The notes beneath the pieces are model-generated. The model was not told the origin of the DNA and did no database searches. It worked only from the letters and a program-made list of their open reading frames with translations. From NCBI GenBank assembly GCA_032718475.1, contig JAUCBJ010000640.1, positions 31,767 through 95,766 of the forward strand: a DNA stretch of 64,000 nucleotides, given 5' to 3'. Positions 1 through 52,900 of the stretch are shown piece after piece (positions within the stretch are counted from its first letter, which is position 1; each line of letters begins with the position of its first letter). The position numbers and the translations under genes were made by a program. Source of the DNA: Nemertoderma westbladi. Lineage: Eukaryota > Animalia > Xenacoelomorpha.

Positions 1-3000
1 TAAAGATGGAGTAGTTCAGGTTAATATACCTCCGAGGTGAGTAAATAAAGAGGGAGTTTAGGTTAATATACCTCCGAGGTGAGTAAATAAAGAGAGAGTT
101 TAGGTTAATATACCTCCGAGGTGAGTAAATAAAGAGGGAGTTTAGGTTAATATACCTCCGAGGTGAGTAAATAAAGATGGAGTAGTTCAGGTTAATATAC
201 CTCCGAGGTGAGTAAATAAAGAGGGAGTTTAGGTTAATATACCTCCGAGGTGAGTAAATAAAGAGAGAGTTTAGGTTAATATACCCCCGAGGTGAGTAAA
301 TAAAGAGAGAGTTCAGGTTAATATACCCCCGAGGTGAGTAAATAAAGACAGAGTAGTTTAGGTTAATATACCCCCGAGGTGAGTAAATAAAGAGGGAGTA
401 GTTCAGGTTAATATACCCCCGAGGTGAGTAAATAAAGAGAGAGTTTAGGTTAATATACCTCCGAGGTGAGTAAATAAAGAGAGAGTTTAGGTTAATATAC
501 CCCCGAGGTGAGTAAATAAAGAGAGAGTTCAGGTTAATATACCTCCGAGGTGAGTAAATAAAGAGGGAGTTTAGGTTAATATACCTCCGAGGTGAGTAAA
601 TAAAGAGAGAGTTTAGGTTAATATACCTCCGAGGTGAGTAAATAAAGAGGGAGTTTAGGTTAATATACCTCCGAGGTGAGTAAATAAAGAGGGAGTTTAG
701 GTTAATATACCTCCGAGGTGAGTAAATAAAGAGAGAGTTTAGGTTAATATACCTCCGAGGTGAGTAAATAAAGAGGGAGTTTAGGTTAATATACCTCCGA
801 GGTGAGTAAATAAAGATGGAGTAGTTCAGGTTAATATACCTCCGAGGTGAGTAAATAAAGAGGGAGTTTAGGTTAATATACCTCCGAGGTGAGTAAATAA
901 AGAGAGAGTTTAGGTTAATATACCCCCGAGGTGAGTAAATAAAGAGAGAGTTCAGGTTAATATACCCCCGAGGTGAGTAAATAAAGACAGAGTAGTTTAG
1001 GTTAATATACCCCCGAGGTGAGTAAATAAAGAGGGAGTAGTTCAGGTTAATATACCCCCGAGGTGAGTAAATAAAGAGAGAGTTTAGGTTAATATACCTC
1101 CGAGGTGAGTAAATAAAGAGAGAGTTTAGGTTAATATACCCCCGAGGTGAGTAAATAAAGAGAGAGTTCAGGTTAATATACCTCCGAGGTGAGTAAATAA
1201 AGAGAGAGTTTAGGTTAATATACCTCCGAGGTGAGTAAATAAAGAGAGAGTTTAGGTTAATATACCCCCGAGGTGAGTAAATAAAGAGAGAGTTCAGGTT
1301 AATATACCCCGAGGTGAGTAAATAAAGAGAGAGTTCAGGTTAATATACCTCCGAGGTGAGTAAATAAAGAGAGAGTTTAGGTTAATATACCCCCGAGGTG
1401 AGTAAATAAAGAGGGAGTAGTTCAGGTTAATATACCCCCGAGGTGAGTAAATAAAGAGAGAGTTTAGGTTAATATACCTCCGAGGTGAGTAAATAAAGAG
1501 AGAGTTTAGGTTAATATACCCCCGAGGTGAGTAAATAAAGAGAGAGTTCAGGTTAATATACCTCCGAGGTGAGTAAATAAAGAGGGAGTAGTTCAGGTTA
1601 ATATACCCCCGAGGTGAGTAAATAAAGAGAGAGTTTAGGTTAATATACCCCCGAGGTGAGTAAATAAAGAGAGAGTTCAGGTTAATATACCCCCGAGGTG
1701 AGTAAATAAAGAGGGAGTTTAGGTTAATATACCCCCGAGGTGAGTAAATAAAGAGAGAGTTTAGGTTAATATACCCCCGAGGTGAGTAAATAAAGAGAGA
1801 GTTCAGGTTAATATACCTCCGAGGTGAGTAAATAAAGAGAGAGTTCAGGTTAATATACCCCCGAGGTGAGTAAATAAAGAGGGAGTAGTTCAGGTTAATA
1901 TACCCCCGAGGTGAGTAAATAAAGAGAGAGTTTAGGTTAATATACCTCCGAGGTGAGTAAATAAAGAGAGAGTTTAGGTTAATATACCTCCGAGGTGAGT
2001 AAATAAAGAGGGAGTAGTTCAGGTTAATATACCTCCGAGGTGAGTAAATAAAGAGAGAGTTCAGGTTAATATACCTCCGAGGTGAGTAAATAAAGAGGGA
2101 GTTTAGGTTAATATACCCCCGAGGTGAGTAAATAAAGAGAGAGTTTAGGTTAATATACCTCCGAGGTGAGTAAATAAAGAGAGAGTAGTTCAGGTTAATA
2201 TACCTCCGAGGTGAGTAAATAAAGAGAGAGTAGTTCAGGTTAATATACCCCCGAGGTGAGTAAATAAAGAGGGAGTTTAGGTTAATATACCCCCGAGGTG
2301 AGTAAATAAAGAGGGAGTAGTTCAGGTTAATATACCTCCGAGGTGAGTAAATAAAGAGAGAGTTCAGGTTAATATACCCCCGAGGTGAGTAAATAAAGAG
2401 GGAGTAGTTCAGGTTAATATACCCCCGAGGTGAGTAAATAAAGAGAGAGTTTAGGTTAATATACCTCCGAGGTGAGTAAATAAAGAGAGAGTTTAGGTTA
2501 ATATACCCCCGAGGTGAGTAAATAAAGAGAGAGTTCAGGTTAATATACCTCCGAGGTGAGTAAATAAAGAGGGAGTAGTTCAGGTTAATATACCCCCGAG
2601 GTGAGTAAATAAAGAGAGAGTTTAGGTTAATATACCCCCGAGGTGAGTAAATAAAGAGAGAGTTCAGGTTAATATACCCCCGAGGTGAGTAAATAAAGAG
2701 GGAGTTTAGGTTAATATACCCCCGAGGTGAGTAAATAAAGAGAGAGTTCAGGTTAATATACCTCCGAGGTGAGTAAATAAAGAGGGAGTTTAGGTTAATA
2801 TACCCCCGAGGTGAGTAAATAAAGAGAGAGTTTAGGTTAATATACCTCCGAGGTGAGTAAATAAAGAGAGAGTAGTTCAGGTTAATATACCTCCGAGGTG
2901 AGTAAATAAAGAGAGAGTAGTTCAGGTTAATATACCCCCGAGGTGAGTAAATAAAGAGGGAGTTTAGGTTAATATACCCCCGAGGTGAGTAAATAAAGAG

Positions 3001-6000
3001 GGAGTAGTTCAGGTTAATATACCTCCGAGGTGAGTAAATAAAGAGAGAGTTCAGGTTAATATACCCCCGAGGTGAGTAAATAAAGAGGGAGTAGTTCAGG
3101 TTAATATACCCCCGAGGTGAGTAAATAAAGAGAGAGTTTAGGTTAATATACCTCCGAGGTGAGTAAATAAAGAGAGAGTTTAGGTTAATATACCCCCGAG
3201 GTGAGTAAATAAAGAGAGAGTTCAGGTTAATATACCTCCGAGGTGAGTAAATAAAGAGGGAGTAGTTCAGGTTAATATACCCCCGAGGTGAGTAAATAAA
3301 GAGAGAGTTTAGGTTAATATACCCCCGAGGTGAGTAAATAAAGAGAGAGTTCAGGTTAATATACCCCCGAGGTGAGTAAATAAAGAGGGAGTTTAGGTTA
3401 ATATACCCCCGAGGTGAGTAAATAAAGAGAGAGTTTAGGTTAATATACCCCCGAGGTGAGTAAATAAAGAGAGAGTTCAGGTTAATATACCTCCGAGGTG
3501 AGTAAATAAAGAGAGAGTTTAGGTTAATATACCTCCGAGGTGAGTAAATAAAGAGAGAGTTTAGGTTAATATACCTCCGAGGTGAGTAAATAAAGAGGGA
3601 GTAGTTCAGGTTAATATACCCCCGAGGTGAGTAAATAAAGAGAGAGTTTAGGTTAATATACCTCCGAGGTGAGTAAATAAAGAGGGAGTTTAGGTTAATA
3701 TACCCCCGAGGTGAGTAAATAAAGAGAGAGTTTAGGTTAATATACCTCCGAGGTGAGTAAATAAAGAGGGAGTTTAGGTTAATATACCTCCGAGGTGAGT
3801 AAATAAAGAGGGAGTTTAGGTTAATATACCCCCGAGGTGAGTAAATAAAGAGAGAGTTTAGGTTAATATACCTCCGAGGTGAGTAAATAAAGAGGGAGTA
3901 GTTCAGGTTAATATACCCCCGAGGTGAGTAAATAAAGAGAGAGTTTAGGTTAATATACCTCCGAGGTGAGTAAATAAAGAGGGAGTTTAGGTTAATATAC
4001 CTCCGAGGTGAGTAAATAAAGAGAGAGTTTAGGTTAATATACCTCCGAGGTGAGTAAATAAAGAGAGAGTTTAGGTTAATATACCTCCGAGGTGAGTAAA
4101 TAAAGAGAGAGTTTAGGTTAATATACCCCCGAGGTGAGTAAATAAAGAGGGAGTAGTTCAGGTTAATATACCTCCGAGGTGAGTAAATAAAGAGGGAGTT
4201 TAGGTTAATATACCTCCGAGGTGAGTAAATAAAGAGAGAGTTTAGGTTAATATACCTCCGAGGTGAGTAAATAAAGAGAGAGTTTAGGTTAATATACCTC
4301 CGAGGTGAGTAAATAAAGAGAGAGTTTAGGTTAATATACCCCCGAGGTGAGTAAATAAAGAGGGAGTAGTTCAGGTTAATATACCCCCGAGGTGAGTAAA
4401 TAAAGAGGGAGTTCAGGTTAATATACCTCCGAGGTGAGTAAATAAAGAGGGAGTAGTTCAGGTTAATATACCCCCGAGGTGAGTAAATAAAGAGAGAGTT
4501 TAGGTTAATATACCTCCGAGGTGAGTAAATAAAGAGGGAGTAGTTCAGGTTAATATACCTCCGAGGTGAGTAAATAAAGAGAGAGTTTAGGTTAATATAC
4601 CCCCGAGGTGAGTAAATAAAGAGAGAGTTTAGGTTAATATACCCCCGAGGTGAGTAAATAAAGAGAGAGTAGTTCAGGTTAATATACCTCCGAGGTGAGT
4701 AAATAAAGAGAGAGTTTAGGTTAATATACCTCCGAGGTGAGTAAATAAAGAGAGAGTTTAGGTTAATATACCCCCGAGGTGAGTAAATAAAGAGAGAGTA
4801 GTTCAGGTTAATATACCTCCGAGGTGAGTAAATAAAGAGGGAGTAGTTCAGGTTAATATACCTCCGAGGTGAGTAAATAAAGAGAGAGTTTAGGTTAATA
4901 TACCCCCGAGGTGAGTAAATAAAGAGGGAGTAGTTCAGGTTAATATACCTCCGAGGTGAGTAAATAAAGAGGGAGTTTAGGTTAATATACCTCCGAGGTG
5001 AGTAAATAAAGAGGGAGTTTAGGTTAATATACCTCCGAGGTGAGTAAATAAAGAGGGAGTAGTTCAGGTTAATATACCTCCGAGGTGAGTAAATAAAGAG
5101 GGAGTAGTTCAGGTTAATATACCTCCGAGGTGAGTAAATAAAGAGGGAGTAGTTCAGGTTAATATACCTCCGAGGTGAGTAAATAAAGAGGGAGTAGTTC
5201 AGGTTAATATACCTCCGAGGTGAGTAAATAAAGAGGGAGTAGTTCAGGTTAATATACCTCCGAGGTGAGTAAATAAAGAGGGAGTAGTTCAGGTTAATAT
5301 ACCTCCGAGGTGAGTAAATAAAGAGAGAGTTTAGGTTAATATACCCCCGAGGTGAGTAAATAAAGAGGGAGTAGTTCAGGTTAATATACCTCCGAGGTGA
5401 GTAAATAAAGAGGGAGTTTAGGTTAATATACCTCCGAGGTGAGTAAATAAAGAGGGAGTTTAGGTTAATATACCTCCGAGGTGAGTAAATAAAGAGGGAG
5501 TAGTTCAGGTTAATATACCTCCGAGGTGAGTAAATAAAGAGAGAGTTTAGGTTAATATACCTCCGAGGTGAGTAAATAAAGAGAGAGTTTAGGTTAATAT
5601 ACCTCCGAGGTGAGTAAATAAAGAGAGAGTTCAGGTTAATATACCTCCGAGGTGAGTAAATAAAGAGAGAGTTTAGGTTAATATACCCCCGAGGTGAGTA
5701 AATAAAGAGAGAGTTTAGGTTAATATACCTCCGAGGTGAGTAAATAAAGAGGGAGTAGTTCAGGTTAATATACCTCCGAGGTGAGTAAATAAAGAGGGAG
5801 TAGTTCAGGTTAATATACCTCCGAGGTGAGTAAATAAAGAGGGAGTAGTTCAGGTTAATATACCTCCGAGGTGAGTAAATAAAGAGAGAGTTTAGGTTAA
5901 TATACCCCCGAGGTGAGTAAATAAAGAGGGAGTAGTTCAGGTTAATATACCTCCGAGGTGAGTAAATAAAGAGGGAGTTTAGGTTAATATACCTCCGAGG

Positions 6001-9000
6001 TGAGTAAATAAAGAGGGAGTTTAGGTTAATATACCTCCGAGGTGAGTAAATAAAGAGGGAGTAGTTCAGGTTAATATACCTCCGAGGTGAGTAAATAAAG
6101 AGAGAGTTTAGGTTAATATACCTCCGAGGTGAGTAAATAAAGAGAGAGTTTAGGTTAATATACCTCCGAGGTGAGTAAATAAAGAGAGAGTTCAGGTTAA
6201 TATACCTCCGAGGTGAGTAAATAAAGAGAGAGTTTAGGTTAATATACCCCCGAGGTGAGTAAATAAAGAGGGAGTAGTTCAGGTTAATATACCCCCGAGG
6301 TGAGTAAATAAAGAGAGAGTTTAGGTTAATATACCCCCGAGGTGAGTAAATAAAGAGGGAGTTCAGGTTAATATACCTCCGAGGTGAGTAAATAAAGAGA
6401 GAGTTTAGGTTAATATACCTCCGAGGTGAGTAAATAAAGAGAGAGTTTAGGTTAATATACCTCCGAGGTGAGTAAATAAAGAGAGAGTTTAGGTTAATAT
6501 ACCTCCGAGGTGAGTAAATAAAGAGAGAGTTTAGGTTAATATACCCCCGAGGTGAGTAAATAAAGAGGGAGTAGTTCAGGTTAATATACCTCCGAGGTGA
6601 GTAAATAAAGAGGGAGTTTAGGTTAATATACCTCCGAGGTGAGTAAATAAAGAGAGAGTTTAGGTTAATATACCTCCGAGGTGAGTAAATAAAGAGAGAG
6701 TTTAGGTTAATATACCTCCGAGGTGAGTAAATAAAGAGAGAGTTTAGGTTAATATACCCCCGAGGTGAGTAAATAAAGAGGGAGTAGTTCAGGTTAATAT
6801 ACCCCCGAGGTGAGTAAATAAAGAGGGAGTTCAGGTTAATATACCCCCGAGGTGAGTAAATAAAGAGAGAGTTTAGGTTAATATACCTCCGAGGTGAGTA
6901 AATAAAGAGAGAGTTTAGGTTAATATACCTCCGAGGTGAGTAAATAAAGAGGGAGTTTAGGTTAATATACCCCCGAGGTGAGTAAATAAAGAGAGAGTTT
7001 AGGTTAATATACCTCCGAGGTGAGTAAATAAAGAGAGAGTTTAGGTTAATATACCTCCGAGGTGAGTAAATAAAGAGGGAGTTTAGGTTAATATACCCCC
7101 GAGGTGAGTAAATAAAGAGGGAGTTTAGGTTAATATACCCCCGAGGTGAGTAAATAAAGAGGGAGTTTAGGTTAATATACCCCCGAGGTGAGTAAATAAA
7201 GAGGGAGTAGTTCAGGTTAATATACCTCCGAGGTGAGTAAATAAAGAGGGAGTTTAGGTTAATATACCTCCGAGGTGAGTAAATAAAGAGAGAGTTTAGG
7301 TTAATATACCTCCGAGGTGAGTAAATAAAGAGAGAGTTTAGGTTAATATACCTCCGAGGTGAGTAAATAAAGAGAGAGTTTAGGTTAATATACCCCCGAG
7401 GTGAGTAAATAAAGAGGGAGTAGTTCAGGTTAATATACCCCCGAGGTGAGTAAATAAAGAGGGAGTTCAGGTTAATATACCCCCGAGGTGAGTAAATAAA
7501 GAGAGAGTTTAGGTTAATATACCTCCGAGGTGAGTAAATAAAGAGAGAGTTTAGGTTAATATACCTCCGAGGTGAGTAAATAAAGAGGGAGTTTAGGTTA
7601 ATATACCCCCGAGGTGAGTAAATAAAGAGAGAGTTTAGGTTAATATACCTCCGAGGTGAGTAAATAAAGAGGGAGTTTAGGTTAATATACCTCCGAGGTG
7701 AGTAAATAAAGAGGGAGTTTAGGTTAATATACCTCCGAGGTGAGTAAATAAAGAGGGAGTTTAGGTTAATATACCCCCGAGGTGAGTAAATAAAGATGGA
7801 GTTTAGGTTAATATACCCCCGAGGTGAGTAAATAAAGAGAGAGTTTAGGTTAATATACCTCCGAGGTGAGTAAATAAAGAGGGAGTTTAGGTTAATATAC
7901 CCCCGAGGTGAGTAAATAAAGAGGGAGTAGTTCAGGTTAATATACCTCCGAGGTGAGTAAATAAAGAGGGAGTTTAGGTTAATATACCTCCGAGGTGAGT
8001 AAATAAAGAGAGAGTTTAGGTTAATATACCTCCGAGGTGAGTAAATAAAGAGAGAGTTTAGGTTAATATACCTCCGAGGTGAGTAAATAAAGAGAGAGTT
8101 TAGGTTAATATACCCCCGAGGTGAGTAAATAAAGAGGGAGTAGTTCAGGTTAATATACCCCCGAGGTGAGTAAATAAAGAGGGAGTTCAGGTTAATATAC
8201 CCCCGAGGTGAGTAAATAAAGAGAGAGTTTAGGTTAATATACCTCCGAGGTGAGTAAATAAAGAGAGAGTTTAGGTTAATATACCTCCGAGGTGAGTAAA
8301 TAAAGAGGGAGTTTAGGTTAATATACCCCCGAGGTGAGTAAATAAAGAGAGAGTTTAGGTTAATATACCTCCGAGGTGAGTAAATAAAGAGAGAGTTTAG
8401 GTTAATATACCTCCGAGGTGAGTAAATAAAGAGGGAGTTTAGGTTAATATACCCCCGAGGTGAGTAAATAAAGAGGGAGTTTAGGTTAATATACCCCCGA
8501 GGTGAGTAAATAAAGAGAGAGTTCAGGTTAATATACCTCCGAGGTGAGTAAATAAAGAGGGAGTTTAGGTTAATATACCCCCGAGGTGAGTAAATAAAGA
8601 GGGAGTAGTTCAGGTTAATATACCCCCGAGGTGAGTAAATAAAGAGAGAGTACAGGTTAATATACCCCCGAGGTGAGTAAATAAAGAGGGAGTTTAGGTT
8701 AATATACCCCCGAGGTGAGTAAATAAAGAGGGAGTAGTTCAGGTTAATATACCCCCGAGGTGAGTAAATAAAGAGAGAGTTTAGGTTAATATACCTCCGA
8801 GGTGAGTAAATAAAGAGAGAGTTTAGGTTAATATACCTCCGAGGTGAGTAAATAAAGAGGGAGTTTAGGTTAATATACCCCCGAGGTGAGTAAATAAAGA
8901 GAGAGTTTAGGTTAATATACCTCCGAGGTGAGTAAATAAAGAGAGAGTTTAGGTTAATATACCCCCGAGGTGAGTAAATAAAGAGAGAGTTTAGGTTAAT

Positions 9001-12000
9001 ATACCTCCGAGGTGAGTAAATAAAGAGAGAGTTCAGGTTAATATACCTCCGAGGTGAGTAAATAAAGAGGGAGTTTAGGTTAATATACCCCCGAGGTGAG
9101 TAAATAAAGAGGGAGTAGTTCAGGTTAATATACCCCCGAGGTGAGTAAATAAAGAGGGAGTAGTTCTGGTTAATATACCTCCGAGGTGAGTAAATAAAGA
9201 GAGAGTTTAGGTTAATATACCTCCGAGGTGAGTAAATAAAGAGGGAGTTTAGGTTAATATACCCCCGAGGTGAGTAAATAAAGAGAGAGTTTAGGTTAAT
9301 ATACCTCCGAGGTGAGTAAATAAAGAGAGAGTTTAGGTTAATATACCTCCGAGGTGAGTAAATAAAGAGGGAGTTTAGGTTAATATACCCCCGAGGTGAG
9401 TAAATAAAGAGGGAGTAGTTCAGGTTAATATACCCCCGAGGTGAGTAAATAAAGAGGGAGTTCAGGTTAATATACCCCCGAGGTGAGTAAATAAAGAGAG
9501 AGTTTAGGTTAATATACCTCCGAGGTGAGTAAATAAAGAGGGAGTTTAGGTTAACATACCCCCGAGGTGAGTAAATAAAGAGGGAGTAGTTCAGGTTAAT
9601 ATACCCCCGAGGTGAGTAAATAAAGAGAGAGTTTAGGTTAATATACCTCCGAGGTGAGTAAATAAAGAGAGAGTTTAGGTTAATATACCCCCGAGGTGAG
9701 TAAATAAAGAGGGAGTTCAGGTTAATATACCCCCGAGGTGAGTAAATAAAGAGAGAGTTTAGGTTAATATACCTCCGAGGTGAGTAAATAAAGAGGGAGT
9801 TTAGGTTAATATACCCCCGAGGTGAGTAAATAAAGAGAGAGTTTAGGTTAATATACCTCCGAGGTGAGTAAATAAAGAGAGAGTTTAGGTTAATATACCT
9901 CCGAGGTGAGTAAATAAAGAGAGAGTTTAGGTTAATATACCTCCGAGGTGAGTAAATAAAGAGGGAGTTCAGGTTAATATACCCCCGAGGTGAGTAAATA
10001 AAGAGAGAGTTTAGGTTAATATACCTCCGAGGTGAGTAAATAAAGAGGGAGTTTAGGTTAATATACCCCCGAGGTGAGTAAATAAAGAGAGAGTTTAGGT
10101 TAATATACCTCCGAGGTGAGTAAATAAAGAGAGAGTTTAGGTTAATATACCTCCGAGGTGAGTAAATAAAGAGAGAGTTTAGGTTAATATACCTCCGAGG
10201 TGAGTAAATAAAGAGAGAGTTTAGGTTAATATACCTCCGAGGTGAGTAAATAAAGAGGGAGTTTAGGTTAATATACCCCCGAGGTGAGTAAATAAAGAGA
10301 GAGTTTAGGTTAATATACCTCCGAGGTGAGTAAATAAAGAGAGAGTTTAGGTTAATATACCTCCGAGGTGAGTAAATAAAGAGGGAGTTCAGGTTAATAT
10401 ACCCCCGAGGTGAGTAAATAAAGAGAGAGTTTAGGTTAATATACCTCCGAGGTGAGTAAATAAAGAGGGAGTTCAGGTTAATATACCCCCGAGGTGAGTA
10501 AATAAAGAGAGAGTTTAGGTTAATATACCTCCGAGGTGAGTAAATAAAGAGGGAGTTTAGGTTAATATACCCCCGAGGTGAGTAAATAAAGAGGGAGTAG
10601 TTCAGGTTAATATACCCCCGAGGTGAGTAAATAAAGAGAGAGTTTAGGTTAATATACCTCCGAGGTGAGTAAATAAAGAGAGAGTTTAGGTTAATATACC
10701 CCCGAGGTGAGTAAATAAAGAGGGAGTTCAGGTTAATATACCCCCGAGGTGAGTAAATAAAGAGGGAGTTTAGGTTAATATACCTCCGAGGTGAGTAAAT
10801 AAAGAGGGAGTAGTTCAGGTTAATATACCCCCGAGGTGAGTAAATAAAGAGAGAGTTTAGGTTAATATACCTCCGAGGTGAGTAAATAAAGAGAGAGTTT
10901 AGGTTAATATACCCCCGAGGTGAGTAAATAAAGAGGGAGTTCAGGTTAATATACCCCCGAGGTGAGTAAATAAAGAGAGAGTTTAGGTTAATATACCTCC
11001 GAGGTGAGTAAATAAAGAGGGAGTTTAGGTTAATATACCCCCGAGGTGAGTAAATAAAGAGGGAGTAGTTCAGGTTAATATACCCCCGAGGTGAGTAAAT
11101 AAAGAGAGAGTTTAGGTTAATATACCTCCGAGGTGAGTAAATAAAGAGAGAGTTTAGGTTAATATACCCCCGAGGTGAGTAAATAAAGAGGGAGTTCAGG
11201 TTAATATACCCCCGAGGTGAGTAAATAAAGAGAGAGTTTAGGTTAATATACCTCCGAGGTGAGTAAATAAAGAGGGAGTTTAGGTTAATATACCCCCGAG
11301 GTGAGTAAATAAAGAGGGAGTAGTTCAGGTTAATATACCCCCGAGGTGAGTAAATAAAGAGGGAGTTCAGGTTAATATACCCCCGAGGTGAGTAAATAAA
11401 GAGAGAGTTTAGGTTAATATACCTCCGAGGTGAGTAAATAAAGAGAGAGTTTAGGTTAATATACCTCCGAGGTGAGTAAATAAAGAGAGAGTTTAGGTTA
11501 ATATACCTCCGAGGTGAGTAAATAAAGAGAGAGTTTAGGTTAATATACCTCCGAGGTGAGTAAATAAAGAGAGAGTTTAGGTTAATATACCTCCGAGGTG
11601 AGTAAATAAAGAGAGAGTTTAGGTTAATATACCTCCGAGGTGAGTAAATAAAGAGAGAGTTTAGGTTAATATACCTCCGAGGTGAGTAAATAAAGAGAGA
11701 GTTTAGGTTAATATACCTCCGAGGTGAGTAAATAAAGAGAGAGTTTAGGTTAATATACCTCCGAGGTGAGTAAATAAAGAGAGAGTTTAGGTTAATATAC
11801 CTCCGAGGTGAGTAAATAAAGAGAGAGTTCAGGTTAATATACCTCCGAGGTGAGTAAATAAAGAGAGAGTTTAGGTTAATATACCTCCGAGGTGAGTAAA
11901 TAAAGAGAGAGTTTAGGTTAATATACCTCCGAGGTGAGTAAATAAAGAGAGAGTTTAGGTTAATATACCTCCGAGGTGAGTAAATAAAGAGAGAGTTTAG

Positions 12001-39000: not shown

Positions 39001-42000
39001 TGAGTAAATAAAGAGGGAGTAGTTCAGGTTAATATACCTCCGAGGTGAGTAAATAAAGAGAGAGTTTAGGTTAATATACCTCCGAGGTGAGTAAATAAAG
39101 AGGGAGTAGTTCAGGTTAATATACCCCGAGGTGAGTAAATAAAGAGGGAGTTCAGGTTAATATACCCCGAGGTGAGTAAATAAAGAGGGAGTTTAGGTTA
39201 ATATACCTCCGAGGTGAGTAAATAAAGAGGGAGTTTAGGTTAATATACCTCCGAGGTGAGTAAATAAAGAGAGAGTTTAGGTTAATATACCTCCGAGGTG
39301 AGTAAATAAAGAGGGAGTAGTTCAGGTTAATATACCTCCGAGGTGAGTAAATAAAGAGAGAGTTTAGGTTAATATACCTCCGAGGTGAGTAAATAAAGAG
39401 GGAGTAGTTCAGGTTAATATACCTCCGAGGTGAGTAAATAAAGAGAGAGTTTAGGTTAATATACCTCCGAGGTGAGTAAATAAAGAGAGAGTTTAGGTTA
39501 ATATACCTCCGAGGTGAGTAAATAAAGAGAGAGTTTAGGTTAATATACCCCCGAGGTGAGTAAATAAAGAGGGAGTTTAGGTTAATATACCTCCGAGGTG
39601 AGTAAATAAAGAGAGAGTTTAGGTTAATATACCTCCGAGGTGAGTAAATAAAGAGAGAGTTTAGGTTAATATACCTCCGAGGTGAGTAAATAAAGAGGGA
39701 GTAGTTCAGGTTAATATACCTCCGAGGTGAGTAAATAAAGAGAGAGTTTAGGTTAATATACCTCCGAGGTGAGTAAATAAAGAGGGAGTAGTTCAGGTTA
39801 ATATACCTCCGAGGTGAGTAAATAAAGAGAGAGTTTAGGTTAATATACCTCCGAGGTGAGTAAATAAAGAGGGAGTAGTTCAGGTTAATATACCTCCGAG
39901 GTGAGTAAATAAAGAGGGAGTTTAGGTTAATATACCTCCGAGGTGAGTAAATAAAGAGAGAGTTCAGGTTAATATACCTCCGAGGTGAGTAAATAAAGAG
40001 GGAGTAGTTCAGGTTAATATACCTCCGAGGTGAGTAAATAAAGAGAGAGTTTAGGTTAATATACCTCCGAGGTGAGTAAATAAAGAGGGAGTAGTTCAGG
40101 TTAATATACCTCCGAGGTGAGTAAATAAAGAGGGAGTTCAGGTTAATATACCCCGAGGTGAGTAAATAAAGAGAGAGTTTAGGTTAATATACCTCCGAGG
40201 TGAGTAAATAAAGAGGGAGTAGTTCAGGTTAATATACCTCCGAGGTGAGTAAATAAAGAGGGAGTTCAGGTTAATATACCCCGAGGTGAGTAAATAAAGA
40301 GGGAGTTTAGGTTAATATACCTCCGAGGTGAGTAAATAAAGAGGGAGTAGTTCAGGTTAATATACCTCCTAGGTGAGTAAATAAAGAGAGAGTTTAGGTT
40401 AATATACCTCCGAGGTGAGTAAATAAAGAGGGAGTTTAGGTTAATATACCTCCGAGGTGAGTAAATAAAGAGGGAGTTCAGGTTAATATACCCCGAGGTG
40501 AGTAAATAAAGAGAGAGTTCAGGTTAATATACCTCCGAGGTGAGTAAATAAAGAGAGAGTTCAGGTTAATATACCCCCGAGGTGAGTAAATAAAGAGAGA
40601 GTTTAGGTTAATATACCTCCGAGGTGAGTAAATAAAGAGAGAGTTTAGGTTAATATACCTCCGAGGTGAGTAAATAAAGAGAGAGTTTAGGTTAATATAC
40701 CTCCGAGGTGAGTAAATAAAGAGAGAGTTCAGGTTAATATACCTCCGAGGTGAGTAAATAAAGAGAGAGTAGTTCAGGTTAATATACCTCCGAGGTGAGT
40801 AAATAAAGAGGGAGTAGTTCAGGTTAATATACCCCCGAGGTGAGTAAATAAAGAGAGAGTTTAGGTTAATATACCTCCGAGGTGAGTAAATAAAGAGGGA
40901 GTTTAGGTTAATATACCCCCGAGGTGAGTAAATAAAGAGAGAGTTTAGGTTAATATACCCCCGAGGTGAGTAAATAAAGAGAGAGTTCAGGTTAATATAC
41001 CCCCGAGGTGAGTAAATAAAGAGAGAGTTTAGGTTAATATACCTCCGAGGTGAGTAAATAAAGAGGGAGTAGTTCAGGTTAATATACCTCCGAGGTGAGT
41101 AAATAAAGAGAGAGTTTAGGTTAATATACCTCCGAGGTGAGTAAATAAAGAGGGAGTTTAGGTTAATATACCCCGAGGTGAGTAAATAAAGAGGGAGTAG
41201 TTCAGGTTAATATACCTCCGAGGTGAGTAAATAAAGAGGGAGTAGTTCAGGTTAATATACCTCCGAGGTGAGTAAATAAAGAGAGAGTTTAGGTTAATAT
41301 ACCTCCGAGGTGAGTAAATAAAGAGGGAGTAGTTCAGGTTAATATACCTCCGAGGTGAGTAAATAAAGAGGGAGTAGTTCAGGTTAATATACCTCCGAGG
41401 TGAGTAAATAAAGAGAGAGTTTAGGTTAATATACCTCCGAGGTGAGTAAATAAAGAGGGAGTTTAGGTTAATATACCCCGAGGTGAGTAAATAAAGAGGG
41501 AGTAGTTCAGGTTAATATACCTCCGAGGTGAGTAAATAAAGAGGGAGTAGTTCAGGTTAATATACCTCCGAGGTGAGTAAATAAAGAGAGAGTTTAGGTT
41601 AATATACCTCCGAGGTGAGTAAATAAAGAGGGAGTAGTTCAGGTTAATATACCTCCGAGGTGAGTAAATAAAGAGAGAGTTTAGGTTAATATACCTCCGA
41701 GGTGAGTAAATAAAGAGGGAGTTTAGGTTAATATACCTCCGAGGTGAGTAAATAAAGAGGGAGTAGTTCAGGTTAATATACCTCCGAGGTGAGTAAATAA
41801 AGAGGGAGTAGTTCAGGTTAATATACCTCCGAGGTGAGTAAATAAAGAGAGAGTTTAGGTTAATATACCTCCGAGGTGAGTAAATAAAGAGGGAGTAGTT
41901 CAGGTTAATATACCCCCGAGGTGAGTAAATAAAGAGAGAGTTTAGGTTAATATACCTCCGAGGTGAGTAAATAAAGAGGGAGTAGTTCAGGTTAATATAC

Positions 42001-45000
42001 CTCCGAGGTGAGTAAATAAAGAGAGAGTTTAGGTTAATATACCCCCGAGGTGAGTAAATAAAGAGAGAGTTCAGGTTAATATACCTCCGAGGTGAGTAAA
42101 TAAAGAGGGAGTAGTTCAGGTTAATATACCCCCGAGGTGAGTAAATAAAGAGAGAGTTTAGGTTAATATACCTCCGAGGTGAGTAAATAAAGAGGGAGTA
42201 GTTCAGGTTAATATACCTCCGAGGTGAGTAAATAAAGAGAGAGTTTAGGTTAATATACCCCCGAGGTGAGTAAATAAAGAGAGAGTTCAGGTTAATATAC
42301 CTCCGAGGTGAGTAAATAAAGAGAGAGTTCAGGTTAATATACCTCCGAGGTGAGTAAATAAAGAGGGAGTTTAGGTTAATATACCCCCGAGGTGAGTAAA
42401 TAAAGAGGGAGTTTAGGTTAATATACCTCCGAGGTGAGTAAATAAAGAGGGAGTAGTTCAGGTTAATATACCTCCGAGGTGAGTAAATAAAGAGAGAGTT
42501 TAGGTTAATATACCCCCGAGGTGAGTAAATAAAGAGGGAGTTTAGGTTAATATACCCCCGAGGTGAGTAAATAAAGAGGGAGTTTAGGTTAATATACCCC
42601 CGAGGTGAGTAAATAAAGAGGGAGTTTAGGTTAATATACCTCCGAGGTGAGTAAATAAAGAGGGAGTTTAGGTTAATATACCTCCGAGGTGAGTAAATAA
42701 AGAGGGAGTAGTTCAGGTTAATATACCTCCGAGGTGAGTAAATAAAGAGGGAGTAGTTCAGGTTAATATACCTCCGAGGTGAGTAAATAAAGAGGGAGTT
42801 TAGGTTAATATACCTCCGAGGTGAGTAAATAAAGAGGGAGTTTAGGTTAATATACCTCCGAGGTGAGTAAATAAAGAGGGAGTAGTTCAGGTTAATATAC
42901 CTCCGAGGTGAGTAAATAAAGAGGGAGTAGTTCAGGTTAATATACCTCCGAGGTGAGTAAATAAAGAGGGAGTTTAGGTTAATATACCTCCGAGGTGAGT
43001 AAATAAAGAGGGAGTTTAGGTTAATATACCTCCGAGGTGAGTAAATAAAGAGGGAGTAGTTCAGGTTAATATACCTCCGAGGTGAGTAAATAAAGAGAGA
43101 GTTTAGGTTAATATACCCCCGAGGTGAGTAAATAAAGAGAGAGTAGTTCAGGTTAATATACCCCCGAGGTGAGTAAATAAAGAGAGAGTTTAGGTTAATA
43201 TACCTCCGAGGTGAGTAAATAAAGAGGGAGTAGTTCAGGTTAATATACCTCCGAGGTGAGTAAATAAAGAGAGAGTTTAGGTTAATATACCCCCGAGGTG
43301 AGTAAATAAAGAGAGAGTTTAGGTTAATATACCTCCGAGGTGAGTAAATAAAGAGGGAGTAGTTCAGGTTAATATACCTCCGAGGTGAGTAAATAAAGAG
43401 AGAGTTTAGGTTAATATACCTCCGAGGTGAGTAAATAAAGAGGGAGTTTAGGTTAATATACCTCCGAGGTGAGTAAATAAAGAGGGAGTAGTTCAGGTTA
43501 ATATACCTCCGAGGTGAGTAAATAAAGAGAGAGTTTAGGTTAATATACCTCCGAGGTGAGTAAATAAAGAGGGAGTTTAGGTTAATATACCTCCGAGGTG
43601 AGTAAATAAAGAGGGAGTTTAGGTTAATATACCTCCGAGGTGAGTAAATAAAGAGGGAGTAGTTCAGGTTAATATACCTCCGAGGTGAGTAAATAAAGAG
43701 GGAGTAGTTCAGGTTAATATACCCCCGAGGTGAGTAAATAAAGAGGGAGTTTAGGTTAATATACCTCCGAGGTGAGTAAATAAAGAGAGAGTTTAGGTTA
43801 ATATACCTCCGAGGTGAGTAAATAAAGAGGGAGTAGTTCAGGTTAATATACCTCCGAGGTGAGTAAATAAAGAGAGAGTTTAGGTTAATATACCTCCGAG
43901 GTGAGTAAATAAAGAGAGAGTTTAGGTTAATATACCTCCGAGGTGAGTAAATAAAGAGAGAGTTTAGGTTAATATACCTCCGAGGTGAGTAAATAAAGAG
44001 AGAGTTTAGGTTAATATACCTCCGAGGTGAGTAAATAAAGAGGGAGTAGTTCAGGTTAATATACCTCCGAGGTGAGTAAATAAAGAGGGAGTAGTTCAGG
44101 TTAATATACCTCCGAGGTGAGTAAATAAAGAGGGAGTAGTTCAGGTTAATATACCTCCGAGGTGAGTAAATAAAGAGAGAGTTTAGGTTAATATACCTCC
44201 GAGGTGAGTAAATAAAGAGGGAGTTTAGGTTAATATACCTCCGAGGTGAGTAAATAAAGAGAGAGTTTAGGTTAATATACCTCCGAGGTGAGTAAATAAA
44301 GAGAGAGTTTAGGTTAATATACCTCCGAGGTGAGTAAATAAAGAGAGAGTTTAGGTTAATATACCTCCGAGGTGAGTAAATAAAGAGAGAGTTTAGGTTA
44401 ATATACCTCCGAGGTGAGTAAATAAAGAGGGAGTAGTTCAGGTTAATATACCTCCGAGGTGAGTAAATAAAGAGAGAGTAGTTCAGGTTAATATACCTCC
44501 GAGGTGAGTAAATAAAGAGGGAGTAGTTCAGGTTAATATACCTCCGAGGTGAGTAAATAAAGAGAGAGTTTAGGTTAATATACCTCCGAGGTGAGTAAAT
44601 AAAGAGGGAGTAGTTCAGGTTAATATACCTCCGAGGTGAGTAAATAAAGAGGGAGTTCAGGTTAATATACCTCCGAGGTGAGTAAATAAAGAGGGAGTTT
44701 AGGTTAATATACCTCCGAGGTGAGTAAATAAAGAGAGAGTTTAGGTTAATATACCTCCGAGGTGAGTAAATAAAGAGAGAGTTTAGGTTAATATACCTCC
44801 GAGGTGAGTAAATAAAGAGAGAGTTCAGGTTAATATACCTCCGAGGTGAGTAAATAAAGAGGGAGTTTAGGTTAATATACCTCCGAGGTGAGTAAATAAA
44901 GAGGGAGTAGTTCAGGTTAATATACCTCCGAGGTGAGTAAATAAAGAGGGAGTTTAGGTTAATATACCTCCGAGGTGAGTAAATAAAGAGGGAGTTTCAG

Positions 45001-48000
45001 GTTAATATACCTCCGAGGTGAGTAAATAAAGAGGGAGTTTAGGTTAATATACCTCCGAGGTGAGTAAATAAAGAGGGAGTAGTTCAGGTTAATATACCTC
45101 CGAGGTGAGTAAATAAAGAGAGAGTTTAGGTTAATATACCTCCGAGGTGAGTAAATAAAGAGGGAGTAGTTCAGGTTAATATACCTCCGAGGTGAGTAAA
45201 TAAAGAGAGAGTTTAGGTTAATATACCTCCGAGGTGAGTAAATAAAGAGAGAGTTTAGGTTAATATACCTCCGAGGTGAGTAAATAAAGAGAGAGTTTAG
45301 GTTAATATACCTCCGAGGTGAGTAAATAAAGAGAGAGTTTAGGTTAATATACCTCCGAGGTGAGTAAATAAAGAGGGAGTTTAGGTTAATATACCTCCGA
45401 GGTGAGTAAATAAAGAGGGAGTAGTTCAGGTTAATATACCTCCGAGGTGAGTAAATAAAGAGAGAGTTTAGGTTAATATACCTCCGAGGTGAGTAAATAA
45501 AGAGGGAGTTTAGGTTAATATACCTCCGAGGTGAGTAAATAAAGAGGGAGTAGTTCAGGTTAATATACCCCCGAGGTGAGTAAATAAAGAGAGAGTTCAG
45601 GTTAATATACCCCCGAGGTGAGTAAATAAAGAGAGTAGTTTAGGTTAATATACCCCCGAGGTGAGTAAATAAAGAGAGAGTTTAGGTTAATATACCTCCG
45701 AGGTGAGTAAATAAAGAGGGAGTAGTTCAGGTTAATATACCCCCGAGGTGAGTAAATAAAGAGGGAGTAGTTCAGGTTAATATACCCCCGAGGTGAGTAA
45801 ATAAAGAGAGAGTTCAGGTTAATATACCTCCGAGGTGAGTAAATAAAGAGAGAGTTCAGGTTAATATACCTCCGAGGTGAGTAAATAAAGAGGGAGTAGT
45901 TCAGGTTAATATACCTCCGAGGTGAGTAAATAAAGAGGGAGTTTAGGTTAATATACCTCCGAGGTGAGTAAATAAAGAGAGAGTTTAGGTTAATATACCT
46001 CCGAGGTGAGTAAATAAAGAGGGAGTAGTTCAGGTTAATATACCTCCGAGGTGAGTAAATAAAGAGGGAGTTTAGGTTAATATACCTCCGAGGTGAGTAA
46101 ATAAAGAGAGAGTTCAGGTTAATATACCTCCGAGGTGAGTAAATAAAGAGGGAGTAGTTCAGGTTAATATACCTCCGAGGTGAGTAAATAAAGAGAGAGT
46201 TTAGGTTAATATACCTCCGAGGTGAGTAAATAAAGAGGGAGTTTAGGTTAATATACCTCCGAGGTGAGTAAATAAAGAGGGAGTAGTTCAGGTTAATATA
46301 CCTCCGAGGTGAGTAAATAAAGAGGGAGTTTAGGTTAATATACCCCCGAGGTGAGTAAATAAAGAGAGAGTTTAGGTTAATATACCTCCGAGGTGAGTAA
46401 ATAAAGAGGGAGTAGTTCAGGTTAATATACCTCCGAGGTGAGTAAATAAAGAGAGAGTTTAGGTTAATATACCTCCGAGGTGAGTAAATAAAGAGGGAGT
46501 AGTTCAGGTTAATATACCTCCGAGGTGAGTAAATAAAGAGAGAGTTTAGGTTAATATACCTCCGAGGTGAGTAAATAAAGAGGGAGTAGTTCAGGTTAAT
46601 ATACCTCCGAGGTGAGTAAATAAAGAGAGAGTTTAGGTTAATATACCTCCGAGGTGAGTAAATAAAGAGGGAGTTTCAGGTTAATATACCTCCGAGGTGA
46701 GTAAATAAAGAGAGAGTTTAGGTTAATATACCTCCGAGGTGAGTAAATAAAGAGGGAGTAGTTCAGGTTAATATACCTCCGAGGTGAGTAAATAAAGAGA
46801 GAGTTTAGGTTAATATACCTCCGAGGTGAGTAAATAAAGATATAGTTTAGGTTAATATACCTCCGAGGTGAGTAAATAAAGATATAGTTCAGGTTAATAT
46901 TCCTCCGAGGTGAGTAAATAAAGAGGGAGTAGTTCAGGTTAATATACCTCCGAGGTGAGTAAATAAAGAGAGAGTTTAGGTTAATATACCTCCGAGGTGA
47001 GTAAATAAAGAGGGAGTAGTTCAGGTTAATATACCTCCGAGGTGAGTAAATAAAGAGAGAGTTTAGGTTAATATACCCCGAGGTGAGTAAATAAAGAGAG
47101 AGTTTAGGTTAATATACCCCCGAGGTGAGTAAATAAAGAGAGAGTTTAGGTTAATATACCCCGAGGTGAGTAAATAAAGAGAGAGTTTAGGTTAATATAC
47201 CTCCGAGGTGAGTAAATAAAGAGAGAGTTTAGGTTAATATACCTCCGAGGTGAGTAAATAAAGAGAGAGTTCAGGTTAATATACCCCGAGGTGAGTAAAT
47301 AAAGAGAGAGTTTAGGTTAATATACCTCCGAGGTGAGTAAATAAAGAGGGAGTTTAGGTTAATATACCTCCGAGGTGAGTAAATAAAGAGAGAGTTCAGG
47401 TTAATATACCCCGAGGTGAGTAAATAAAGAGAGAGTTTAGGTTAATATACCTCCGAGGTGAGTAAATAAAGAGAGAGTTTAGGTTAATATACCTCCGAGG
47501 TGAGTAAATAAAGAGAGAGTTTAGGTTAATATACCTCCGAGGTGAGTAAATAAAGAGGGAGTTTAGGTTAATATACCTCCGAGGTGAGTAAATAAAGAGA
47601 GAGTTTAGGTTAATATACCTCCGAGGTGAGTAAATAAAGAGAGAGTTTAGGTTAATATACCCCGAGGTGAGTAAATAAAGAGAGAGTTTAGGTTAATATA
47701 CCTCCGAGGTGAGTAAATAAAGAGAGAGTTTAGGTTAATATACCTCCGAGGTGAGTAAATAAAGAGAGAGTTTAGGTTAATATACCTCCGAGGTGAGTAA
47801 ATAAAGAGAGAGTTCAGGTTAATATACCCCGAGGTGAGTAAATAAAGAGAGAGTTTAGGTTAATATACCTCCGAGGTGAGTAAATAAAGAGAGAGTTTAG
47901 TTTAATATACCTCCGAGGTGAGTAAATAAAGAGGGAGTTTAGGTTAATATACCTCCGAGGTGAGTAAATAAAGAGAGAGTTCAGGTTAATATACCCCGAG

Positions 48001-49663
48001 GTGAGTAAATAAAGAGAGAGTTTAGGTTAATATACCTCCGAGGTGAGTAAATAAAGAGAGAGTTTAGGTTAATATACCTCCGAGGTGAGTAAATAAAGAG
48101 AGAGTTTAGGTTAATATACCTCCGAGGTGAGTAAATAAAGAGAGAGTTTAGGTTAATATACCTCCGAGGTGAGTAAATAAAGAGAGAGTTTAGGTTAATA
48201 TACCTCCGAGGTGAGTAAATAAAGAGAGAGTTTAGGTTAATATACCTCCGAGGTGAGTAAATAAAGAGAGAGTTTAGGTTAATATACCTCCGAGGTGAGT
48301 AAATAAAGAGAGAGTTTAGGTTAATATACCTCCGAGGTGAGTAAATAAAGAGGGAGTTTAGGTTAATATACCTCCGAGGTGAGTAAATAAAGAGAGAGTT
48401 TAGGTTAATATACCTCCGAGGTGAGTAAATAAAGAGGGAGTTTAGGTTAATATACCTCCGAGGTGAGTAAATAAAGAGAGAGTTTAGGTTAATATACCTC
48501 CGAGGTGAGTAAATAAAGAGAGAGTTTAGGTTAATATACCTCCGAGGTGAGTAAATAAAGAGAGAGTTTAGGTTAATATACCCCCGAGGTGAGTAAATAA
48601 AGAGGGAGTTTAGGTTAATATACCCCCGAGGTGAGTAAATAAAGAGAGAGTTTAGGTTAATATACCTCCGAGGTGAGTAAATAAAGAGAGAGTTTAGGTT
48701 AATATACCCCCGAGGTGAGTAAATAAAGAGAGAGTTTAGGTTAATATACCCCCGAGGTGAGTAAATAAAGAGGGAGTTTAGGTTAATATACCTCCGAGGT
48801 GAGTAAATAAAGAGAGAGTTTAGGTTAATATACCTCCGAGGTGAGTAAATAAAGAGAGAGTTTAGGTTAATATACCTCCGAGGTGAGTAAATAAAGAGGG
48901 AGTTTAGGTTAATATACCCCCGAGGTGAGTAAATAAAGAGGGAGTTTAGGTTAATATACCTCCGAGGTGAGTAAATAAAGAGAGAGTTTAGGTTAATATA
49001 CCCCCGAGGTGAGTAAATAAAGAGGGAGTTTAGGTTAATATACCTCCGAGGTGAGTAAATAAAGAGAGAGTTTAGGTTAATATACCTCCGAGGTGAGTAA
49101 ATAAAGAGAGAGTTTAGGTTAATATACCCCCGAGGTGAGTAAATAAAGAGGGAGTTTAGGTTAATATACCTCCGAGGTGAGTAAATAAAGAGAGAGTTTA
49201 GGTTAATATACCTCCGAGGTGAGTAAATAAAGAGAGAGTTTAGGTTAATATACCTCCGAGGTGAGTAAATAAAGAGAGAGTTTAGGTTAATATACCCCCG
49301 AGGTGAGTAAATAAAGAGGGAGTTTAGGTTAATATACCTCCGAGGTGAGTAAATAAAGAGAGAGTTTAGGTTAATATACCTCCGAGGTGAGTAAATAAAG
49401 AGAGAGTTTAGGTTAATATACCTCCGAGGTGAGTAAATAAAGAGAGAGTTTAGGTTAATATACCCCCGAGGTGAGTAAATAAAGAGGGAGTTTAGGTTAA
49501 TATACCTCCGAGGTGAGTAAATAAAGAGAGAGTTTAGGTTAATATACCCCCGAGGTGAGTAAATAAAGAGGGAGTTTAGGTTAATATACCTCCGAGGTGA
49601 GTAAATAAAGAGAGAGTTTAGGTTAATATACCCCCGAGGTGAGTAAATAAAGAGGGAGTTTAG
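1..49663 (+). repeat. Giant tandem minisatellite/satellite array, 42-bp unit (45-bp and 41-bp variants), open at the left window edge
   Basis: Consensus GAGGTGAGTAAATAAAGAG(A/G)GAG[TAG]TT(T/C)AGGTTAATATACC(T/C)CC repeated head-to-tail with no unique spacer. Period 42 read directly (TAAAG at 601 and 643). Ends at ...AAAGAGGGAGTTTAG (49,663). About 1,150-1,180 copies is an estimate from length/unit size. Confidence 0.99.
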
Positions 49664-49834
49664 TTCTTTTGGGAGTTTAGTAGGACCAGATTATATGGGT
49701 TACTGCCCCTGCCTCTACGTTTTGTGCCTTATTTCACGGCGTGTTTTTCGCCTGCTTGATAACACATAAAGTGATAATAAATCTTCAGATGTGTCGCGTC
49801 GCTGATTTTCATAATTTATAATTTTATAATTTAG

Positions 49835-49989
49835 ATTTGAGGAACTAAGTAATTTAATTCAGGAACGCGAGGATAATACTTCGCAAATAAATCGGAGATT
49901 GGAGTTTATCGAGGACCAGGCCGAGAGGACTAACATTGTATTACAACACATCGTGGAAAAATTGAACGAAAGAACCCAAAAAACAACGA
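49835..49989 (+). CDS. TRPM2: TRPM2-like exon: C-terminal coiled coil (FEELSNLIQEREDNTSQINRRLEFIEDQAERTNIVLQHIVEKLNERTQKTT)
   Basis: TTTAG acceptor, GTAAGT donor, 155 nt open frame with heptad pattern resembling TRPM2 RLASLEEQVAQT..ALHWIV. Confidence 0.8.
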
Positions 49990-52900
49990 GTAAGTTACAA
50001 TTATGATTACGTAATTATTGAGCAATACGTTATGAATACAATTGTTCCATCATTTGTTCTCCTAAAAATAAAATAATATGTTTCCTTGCAGTACCAACAG
50101 CTTCTAATGTGAACCGAAAAGAAACAATACCAAAGATTGAAGTTACACCAGAAAAAAAGCAAAATACACCCAGAAAAAAGTCAAGTAAGTTTTATATTAA
50201 ACCGAGAATGTACTAATGTAGAGATGCATCTACAGAGATGCGTGTTTGTCATTGCGACTGCTTGTCTGTACAACAAAGACCAGGTTCTACAACATTGTCT
50301 ACTTTCAGCTAGAGTGCGCACTGAATTTAAAAGTGTTGCTACCAAACTTTCAGATTTTTTAATGTTTTGCCCTCGGTAATAGGAAGGAAATTCTGTTAAT
50401 TTAATTATATTACTTAACATGTAATAAAGGTTATTATAAATTCTCAAAATTGCGCTTAATTAATTACACCATGTGCTGGAATGAAGTATCGTAATTCAGT
50501 AACATGGATCCCCCCTTCTAAATGTTTCTACAACTCTTAATGAGATTCCATGAAATTTGAAACAGTTATCTATAGTTTCACCTCCCCCCTCCTTATTGGG
50601 TGAGCCAGTATTTTTATTTTTGCTTTTATTATTAGAAAAAAGTGTCCCCAGCGATATTATTACTTATAATGATTTATTTATATTATTTTTTATTATATTA
50701 TGATTTAATTTTTTATAGAACTTTATTTTTTACTTTTGTTGTACTATTATTTTATATTGAAATTATTATATTGAATTGTTGGTAGCAATGGAAAGCTGGC
50801 CATTAAAGGATCCCGAATAAGTAATAACTATTTACATACTTGTGTGTAAAGTAGCACTTTACCGTGTGATGATCCGAGTGGCTTTGTTACACGAACGAAC
50901 GTTAGTGAGTGAGTGAAAATAAAGCCACGAGGATCAGAACACTGTAACTGTACTTTGCAACAAGTATGTATGTAGTTTTATTCCAAAATTTTAACATTAC
51001 GAAATGATTGTATATATTATTATAAGTGATAGAAACTGCACAAATTATATTAGGAGTCTCCGACGAATAAGTGGCAACAGTTACACCGTACTTACTCTTA
51101 ACCCTTGTAGTGATTTGTTGGTACCAATAGAAAGCTGGCCGTGCTAGGATTCCAAATATGTAGCACAATCTGAATTTCGTCCTAAAATAGCTGAGACATA
51201 ATTTGAATTTAATAAATAAACCATATTCTGGAACATTTTGTTAATAATTGAATAGCTACGTAAGGTATATCTTACTACACCATGTCCCGTAATATAGTGT
51301 CATTTTCTGATGGCACGGACCTCCCCCCCCCCCCAGATTTTTCTACAAATCTTTATCATATTGCTTGAAATTTGAAACACCACTAGTTCCACTCACCGTC
51401 GATGACCCCATGAAGCCGGAATTTTCGATTTCGCCATTAAATTTTTTTTAATAAGCGTTTTAAAAAAAGTGTCTTTTGCGAAATCGCACCCTCCGTATCG
51501 TGGACATTCTTCACATTAGTCGTAATTTTTTCATATCACTTGAAAGCTTGCGTTGCAAGGATTCGAAATATGTAACAATATCTGAATTTCGTTGAGAAAC
51601 AACTGAGATATAGGCGTTCAAAGATTCAAGAATTATTGTTCGCTAGAACGCATTACGACTAATGTGAAGAATGGCCACGATACGGATGGTGGGATTTCGC
51701 AAAAGACACTTTTTTAAACGCTTATTAAAATTTTTTTAAGACGAAATGGAAAATTCCGGCTTCATGGTAACAACCACGGTGAGTTGAACTAGTTGTGTTT
51801 CAAATTTCAAGCAATATGATAAAGATTTGTAGAAAAATTTGGGGGGGGGGGGGGGATCGGAAAATGACACTACTGTATATTACGGGTCATGGTGTATATT
51901 GATTGATTATTGACGAATCGCTACTTTTACTATTTATTTTAATGAAATATTGTATAATTTTTACTATGATGTAATTATAATATTATAATATAGGTATTCG
52001 GGGAGCTGATAGCCTCTGTGGTTGGTCCTTCCAGCGTTGAGCGGGAAGTGACTCTTTCCAGGGGGTACTTGGATCGGGAGGGCCGGGAGGTGGGGGGCGT
52101 ACGGGCAGACCTGGTTGCTCGGGGGGTCTGGGCCAATCAACGGGTGGCGTCGTTCGACATTGCGTTAATCAACGCTGACGCCACCTCGTATGTCCAGACC
52201 AACCGTTCAACTGAGTCTCTCCTGGAGGAGAGGTGTCGGCTGAAGAAGCGACACTACCAGACCGTCTGCAACGACCGGAGGATGGCCTTCACCCCCCTGG
52301 TTGGCACCACCGATGGTGTCTGGTGCACCGAGGCTCAAATACTAATTCGCCATCTAGCGGAGTCACTTGTGGCTCGGCGGGATGGTATGCGTGAGAGGGG
52401 CCTCGCGTGCGTGCTGGGGGGTGTTCGCCGGCGGCTGCAGTTCGCGCTCCTCCGGTCTAGCTCCCTCTGCCTCCGTGGAGGTCGGCGTCCGTGGCGGGGC
52501 TTGGGATTTGGAGACGGTGCGGGTTTGCGTGGCGCTGATTTGGGTAACTACTGATTACAGTAATTATTGTATTAAGTAAATTTATCAGCATTTATTAATA
52601 ATTTATTCTACAGTAAATATATTATTTTATTTAACTGAAATTATAATATATATATATTATTATTATAATAATACACTTTAATTATATGATTAATTATAAT
52701 AATGTTAAATATACGAGCTGCTTCAGCTCAACTAACTAACTACTAGATGGATGGAGCTATTTTACTACGTAATAGTATGATTATAGAGTTATTGCATTGT
52801 TACACAGCTACGCATGGGAATAAACAAAATGTTCTAGAATATGGAGTATTTATTAAATAGAAAAGCAGGGGGGGGGGACTGGACGCAAGGGGGGGGGGGG

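Follow-up and report, generated by a model that had tools for sequence, protein, structure and literature searches.

The window, a stretch of 64,000 nt of Nemertoderma westbladi DNA that was analysed as a whole, opens inside an intron of a TRPM2-like gene, and this intron is filled with tandem copies of its own 5' splice site. The locus is a junction-spanning minisatellite, which is a known class, and the novelty lies in its scale. The explanation that we hold to be highly probable is that of a minisatellite at a single locus which has grown to the size of a satellite, which has a real donor in each unit, and which is likely tolerated by commitment of the splicing machinery to the first donor.

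When the window was examined with Tandem Repeats Finder it was found that 13-49,663 is one tandem array with a period of 42 and 1,163 copies, and as the left edge of the window cuts the array this copy count is a lower bound (at least 1,163). The initial annotation had claimed more than 1,100 tandem copies over about 50 kb and a consensus donor GAG/GTGAGT in nearly every unit (the slash marks the splice site), and both claims were confirmed, the donor GAG/GTGAGTAAATAAAG being exact over positions -3 to +14 in 1,156 of the 1,163 sites. The 1,162 intervals measure 42 bp in 838 cases, 45 bp in 276, 41 bp in 41, 44 bp in 4 and 43 bp in 3. Read from its true start the unit consists of 3 exon bases (GAG) and about 39 intron bases, and its layout is GAG/GTGAGT, AATAAA at +8 to +13, a purine-rich tract, YAG/GTTAAT and ACC(T/C)CC, with 17 nt from the YAG to the next GTGAGT donor. 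There are four main variable positions per unit, and exact duplicated blocks of 635-2,177 bp occur within the array. A polarity of the variants along the array had also been claimed, and this could not be upheld because the units of the GTAGTTCAG type (271 of 1,162) are distributed without a trend (Spearman rho 0.03, p 0.25). Stop codons were present in all three forward frames of the two unit pairs that were translated and hence the array is not coding. The donor positions carried 8 substitutions, in 7 units, compared to 11 in the 16 positions of the 3' part of the unit. Thus, the donor copies change at a rate close to that of the rest of the unit, and this comparison across units gives no sign of selection on, or protection of, the donor copies, which argues that the array is most likely neutral cargo. 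The 9 positions around AATAAA had zero changes across units, a count that was made post hoc and is given no weight. The sequence GGGAGTTTAG recurs once just right of the array edge, at 49,654-49,680, as a trace of local slippage. The features are listed in Table 1.

Table 1. Features of the array, its intron and the TRPM2-like gene in the window.
Feature	Position	Strand	Remark
Tandem array, at least 1,163 units	1..49663	+	cut by left window edge
Last partial unit, 28 nt, last donor at 49,639	49636..49663	+	right array edge common to three genomic runs
Unique 3' part of the intron, 171 nt, T-rich TTTAG acceptor at its end	49664..49834	+	
Exon A, TRPM C-terminal coiled-coil region, phase 2 in, phase 1 out	49835..49989	+	joined to first donor in transcript
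Exon B, 93 nt	50092..50184	+	fits 93-nt transcript gap; not its own listed piece
Exon C, linker and start of NUDT9-homology domain	53442..53686	+	
Exon D, NUDT9-homology domain	53943..54139	+	
Exon E, NUDT9-homology domain	54683..54863	+	
Exon F, NUDT9-homology domain, donor AAG/GTTAAT	55190..55453	+	best PDB match 6co7, TRPM2-like, E 1.3e-12
Exon G, to stop codon	57989..58093	+	predicted from frame and homology; beyond the stretch compared with the runs

The left flank of the array was taken from public sequencing runs, namely the genomic runs X1, X2 and X3, which represent two samples and two studies (X2 and X3 are one sample), and a fourth run, X4, which is from a different sample than the window; these are four of six listed runs under one species label, of which none is recorded as RNA. 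In X4 a contig of 6,553 nt with a depth of 49.5 covers only exons A, C, D, E and F; the exons abut in the coordinates of this contig except for a gap of the length of exon B, there is no cover on the unique intron bins, the depth on the array is 0, and the contig extends 3,665 nt upstream of exon A. Since the contig is exon-only it was read as a spliced transcript; the run carries the label 'DNA?' and that it is RNA we infer from the exon-only cover. In this one contig, from one study and another sample, the first array donor is joined in frame to the acceptor at 49,835, and unit sequence beyond GAG is not among the transcript letters before the junction. The 30 letters before 49,833 in the spliced contig are the same as those before GAG/GTGAGT (49,594) in X1-X3, and in all three genomic runs the exon end runs straight into the array, the flank left of the first unit being 130 nt in X1 and at least 255 nt in X2 and X3. 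As the letters of the exon end are identical in transcript and DNA and are then followed directly by GAG/GTGAGT, the real 5' splice site is where the array begins. The junction translates as ..FLEQ-R-FEEL (30 letters of the X4 contig plus AG/A), and near it homolog P0050 has SQRFTSL and homolog P0023 has DERVHNT, with weak local scores.

These data show which parts of the initial annotation were correct. It had the array starting within a TRPM exon end that carries a donor, and there is indeed a real phase-2 junction, but the exon letters that it predicted were wrong, for the exon ends in ..GAGCAGAG. The one transcript contig does not contain the predicted mRNA junction CCTCCGAG/ATTTGAG but has ..GAGCAGAG/ATTTGAG, and that part of the proposal is thereby refuted. 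The translation (D/E)GVVQVNIPP, which had been taken for the exon end, does occur in 237 of 1,162 units (235 with E and 2 with D) but it is not the exon end in the X4 contig or in X1-X3; in 678 units, the two commonest classes, a stop codon gives V-stop-VNIPP. The part that reads VNIPP lies downstream of the true donor and is intronic. In the same way, an exon end with its 5' splice site was said to have been amplified, and a real donor is copied, but of the exon the unit takes in no more than its last 3 bases. The exon at 49,835 does require a phase-2 donor, as had been argued, the frame being in agreement; because the exon end in the transcript differs from VQVNIPP, the phase argument was right for the wrong reason. 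An amplified exon end that codes for VQVNIPP and carries the donor, or a 17-nt microexon used in every unit, would have accounted for the in-frame phase-2 reading of the 237 units in the first case and for the YAG-17 nt-GTGAGT layout in the second; however, the transcript has 30 letters ahead of the junction that are unlike the unit and agree with the genomic sequence to the left of the array, and this rules out both forms for the main isoform and leaves them with a negligible probability overall.

The right array edge is found as a single-copy contig in all three genomic runs. The share of unit ends that run on into unlike sequence is 0 in X1-X3, and among the loose-end matches listed for these runs, from which contig filters could hide some, there was no long flank on a unit other than the TRPM2 exon, and this speaks for a single locus. 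Arrays of the same unit at unrelated loci had been named as an observation that would speak against the original reading, and none came to light, no long unrelated flank being seen among the same listed matches. A further explanation would be that the array, or its length, is an artefact of assembly. This would be in keeping with the use of assembled contigs rather than raw reads and with no listed piece spanning the array, and yet the summed depth of the units is very high, and both edges are present, in three genomic runs that look independent of one another, and the variant blocks are nested as real unequal crossing-over would give. We therefore consider an artefact very improbable, although the exact array length could still be off.

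Downstream of the array, splicing together the seven exons (49,835 to 58,093) yields one open frame of 412 amino acids and a stop. A coiled coil followed by a C-terminal NUDT9-homology domain is the order expected of a TRPM2-like protein and this order is present. The joined C-terminus matches 12 of 12 proteins chosen from 150 listed, with E values from 3e-54 to 7e-13 and mostly in the NUDT9-homology part, over which proteins with TRPM2 domains match the 412-aa frame at E 3e-54 to 1e-33. Exon F matches nine other NUDT9/TRPM2 sequences besides the PDB entry in Table 1, and a homolog search with this exon gave 2 NUDT9-type proteins among 232 candidates, with none from N. westbladi itself. TRPM SLOG and TRPM2-like domains were found in 6 of the 10 homologs scanned, and exon A alone had no TRPM match in Pfam or PDB. 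The NUDT9-homology matches (6co7 and the 12 chosen proteins) support the TRPM2-like identity that the gene had been given at the outset. The N-terminal SLOG/TRPM domains and the channel part would lie left of the window, and the 3,665 nt of upstream transcript would be of a fitting length. The Nudix box looks degenerate (54,850-54,863 and 55,226-55,262), as it reads RRALATQAL compared to KAEFGEEAM of 6co7 and two glutamates are missing. The two Nudix-box glutamates are catalytic. The NUDT9-homology enzyme domain may be inactive.

Between the last donor, with its G at 49,639, and the acceptor (49,834/5) there are 196 nt, which reproduces the figure given earlier. The join in the transcript would skip at least 1,163 identical donors. 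That the one spliced product uses the first copy, when the last one lies as close as 196 nt to the acceptor, favours position over sequence strength or proximity to the acceptor, position here meaning exon definition and first-come commitment. A probable explanation is that the first donor wins because it alone would be paired across the exon with the upstream acceptor and because it is transcribed first, by exon definition or by oriented scanning of the kind that was tested for human F7. The choice may be helped by tethering of the first donor to the polymerase (PMC8316553). Read-through past any donor gives AG-G-TGA, that is R and then an immediate stop, and rare use of a later donor would keep this sequence so that the product would be removed by nonsense-mediated decay. 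X4 is one contig, and contigs drop rare isoforms, so that a minor use of donors 2-3, as reported for 6-16 and CBS, would escape. Masking of the later donors by a hairpin with the ACCTC just upstream was considered and is not supported at short nascent lengths: the energy of the local hairpin is only -2.7 kcal/mol for the T type and -1.8 kcal/mol for the C type, and the donors are 0.79-0.92 unpaired at nascent +15 to +25, although pairing increases in longer contexts (0.29-0.42 vs about 0.6 at +80).

Mature mRNA would be the same product whether the intron is removed in one step or stepwise, and this brings up recursive splicing, by which AG/GT sites within the array would serve as acceptors and the donor would be regenerated each time. 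CCGAG/GTGAGT as a recursive acceptor would restore the original donor exactly. The array has 1,162 YAGGT sites, 1,159 of them as YAG/GTTAAT, and GTTAAT is the real donor of exon F in the same gene; five pyrimidines plus NAG/GT, with any base before AG, occur at 1,116 sites, and a strong donor follows 17 nt after each YAG/GT, which is RS-exon-like. However, the motif Y5+N0-4YAGGT, as it is given in passages of PMC10156609, is present at only 1 of the 1,162 YAGGT sites, at 40,365, in a mutated donor copy. The pyrimidine fraction at the YAG sites in the array is 0.15-0.30 compared to 0.50-0.80 at the 7 real acceptors, the 20 nt upstream of the in-array sites are purine-rich with about 4.5 AGs, and the real acceptors have YAG in all 7 cases and GAG in none. 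On this evidence we think that stepwise removal is improbable. In the copy at 40,365-40,374 it is a G>T change at donor -3 that gives CCTCCTAG/GT, the sole match to the minimal recursive-splice motif.

The transcript is from another sample, and X4 is without genomic cover by which its array could be sized, so that it might stem from a short-array allele, the 50-kb allele of the window being poorly expressed or null. The 1,163 sense-strand AATAAA hexamers would suit this, and so would X2, whose figures suggest that its array is much shorter than that of X1 or X3. Against this, the window has all seven downstream exons in an intact, in-frame state, and both array edges are common to three genomic runs whose flanks are about 3% divergent. 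X4 has 1 difference from the window in 1,044 exon bases and the X1 haplotype, with 11 differences in 370 nt, is still array-bearing; since X4 is near-identical to the window while more divergent haplotypes carry the array, the X4 allele is likely array-bearing. By contig depth X1 and X3 suggest tens of kb of array and X2 far less, with a calibration factor of 0.3-12, but X2 and X3 are the same sample and their figures are about 20-fold apart, and therefore the low X2 figure looks technical and contig depth does not give a copy number. The estimation of array copy number from contig depth was abandoned. We give a null allele in the window a small chance.

When all whole units are removed an intron of 196 nt is left, from which a short-intron origin can fairly be inferred, and the proposed expansion of an intron of about 200 nt to at least 50 kb holds good to that extent. 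Other introns of the gene had been said to be close to this length and those of 102, 256 and 326 nt do exist, but there are also introns of 543, 3,257 and about 2,535 nt. The array would have started when a stretch at the 5' side of an intron of about 200-240 nt was duplicated locally, and it would then have grown by slippage and by unequal crossing-over, to which the duplicated blocks of 0.6-2.2 kb would belong. The 14-nt part GTTAATATACCTCC has no counterpart elsewhere in the window even when 3 mismatches are allowed, so that the last unit has lost some of its sequence or else an insertion was part of the founding duplication. Growth of this kind would be a direct route by which an intron of about 200 nt can grow 250-fold from its own splice site.

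AATAAA occurs 1,163 times on the sense strand of the array compared to 15 times in about 7.2 kb from other introns of the gene. Suppression of nearby intronic poly(A) signals by U1 has been reported (PMC5499120), and U1 bound at each donor might likewise shield the adjacent AATAAA from premature cleavage. Such shielding is plausible, and the 1,163 poly(A) hexamers of the array offer a way to test U1 protection. The chicken LL2R repeat RNA is transcribed and donor-rich and is reported to concentrate spliceosomal snRNPs; its unit is non-coding and poor in poly(A) signals, and more than 5 donors are predicted in 2 kb of it (passages of bioRxiv 10.64898/2026.03.19.712899). The present array differs from it in having about 47 copies of a real donor per 2 kb, each with AATAAA, in the intron of a protein-coding gene. 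This difference in donor density motivates a bolder reading, which we find unlikely, that the array is coated with U1 snRNP and could expand only by U1 shielding, that it forms a local snRNP-rich body or is removed by a self-regenerating ratchet, and that its length tunes the output of TRPM2.

Junction-spanning minisatellites are known from human genes, and the passages of PMC1557585 that treat them give F7 intron 7 (37 bp, 5-9 copies), 6-16 intron 2 (25 pseudo-sites), CBS intron 13 (15-20), LAMIN B2 (100 bp, 10-15) and PDGF intron 4 (81 bp, 16-18). According to the same passages the most upstream of consecutive identical donors is chosen and the rest are functional yet unused, the silent donors of F7 having been proved functional by mutation. 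As in the F7 type described there, the first unit here reaches across the exon-intron boundary and takes in a few exon bases (3, compared to 4 in F7), identical donors repeat downstream, and the most upstream is used, in our case by one contig from another sample. Unlike those cases, there are at least 1,163 copies over 49.6 kb, which is about 45-fold above the largest case listed in those passages, and there are higher-order duplicated blocks, an AATAAA beside the donor, a YAG/GT in each unit, and a gene that is not human. The Y-linked giant introns of Drosophila are likewise enlarged by tandem repeats and still spliced (PMC11207136 and PMC6508621); they are far larger, and repeats of an intron's own splice site are not described in the passages of PMC11207136. 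Recursive splice sites and RS-exons, as presented in PMC10156609 and PMC8605326, share with the array an AG/GT in a long intron and a second donor, here 17 nt downstream, and by the motif in the former 1,161 of the 1,162 YAGGT sites differ from them in having no pyrimidine tract. No donor-repeating array of hundreds of copies was found in the open literature, subscription papers and supplements being outside the scope, and no such case appears in the passages of PMC10078293. The choice of the spliceosome among identical 5' splice sites has so far been studied with 5-26 natural copies, and this locus is likely an extreme natural test of it.

The sequence next to the array holds several other repeats. 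Within 50,400-53,300 and 54,150-54,450 there are several high-copy dispersed repeats, with an inverted pair near 51,270-51,450 and 51,700-51,900, and a stretch of about 260 bp at 54,159-54,419 is missing in X1 and X2 and is an insertion polymorphism. A GC-rich open frame of 186 codons at 51,994-52,551 has a high depth in the genomic runs and no Pfam match; we take it to resemble the 3' end of a retrotransposon with a restriction-like endonuclease. The last intron contains a broken LINE-type retrotransposon on the sense strand (55,526-57,910), with reverse transcriptase matches and a short TAG run at its end. The minus-strand open reading frames right of the TRPM2-like gene had no credible Pfam match. 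A 63-bp minisatellite with 5 copies is found at 59,357-59,668, adjoining possible exons of an unnamed gene; its minus strand has an AG and a GT per unit and one frame that is open over four units, and it could be a second repeat that bears splice sites. Finally, in the intron between exons C and D there is a small duplication at 53,795-53,930 with two donor-like copies of TTTAC-GTGAGTAAACAA.
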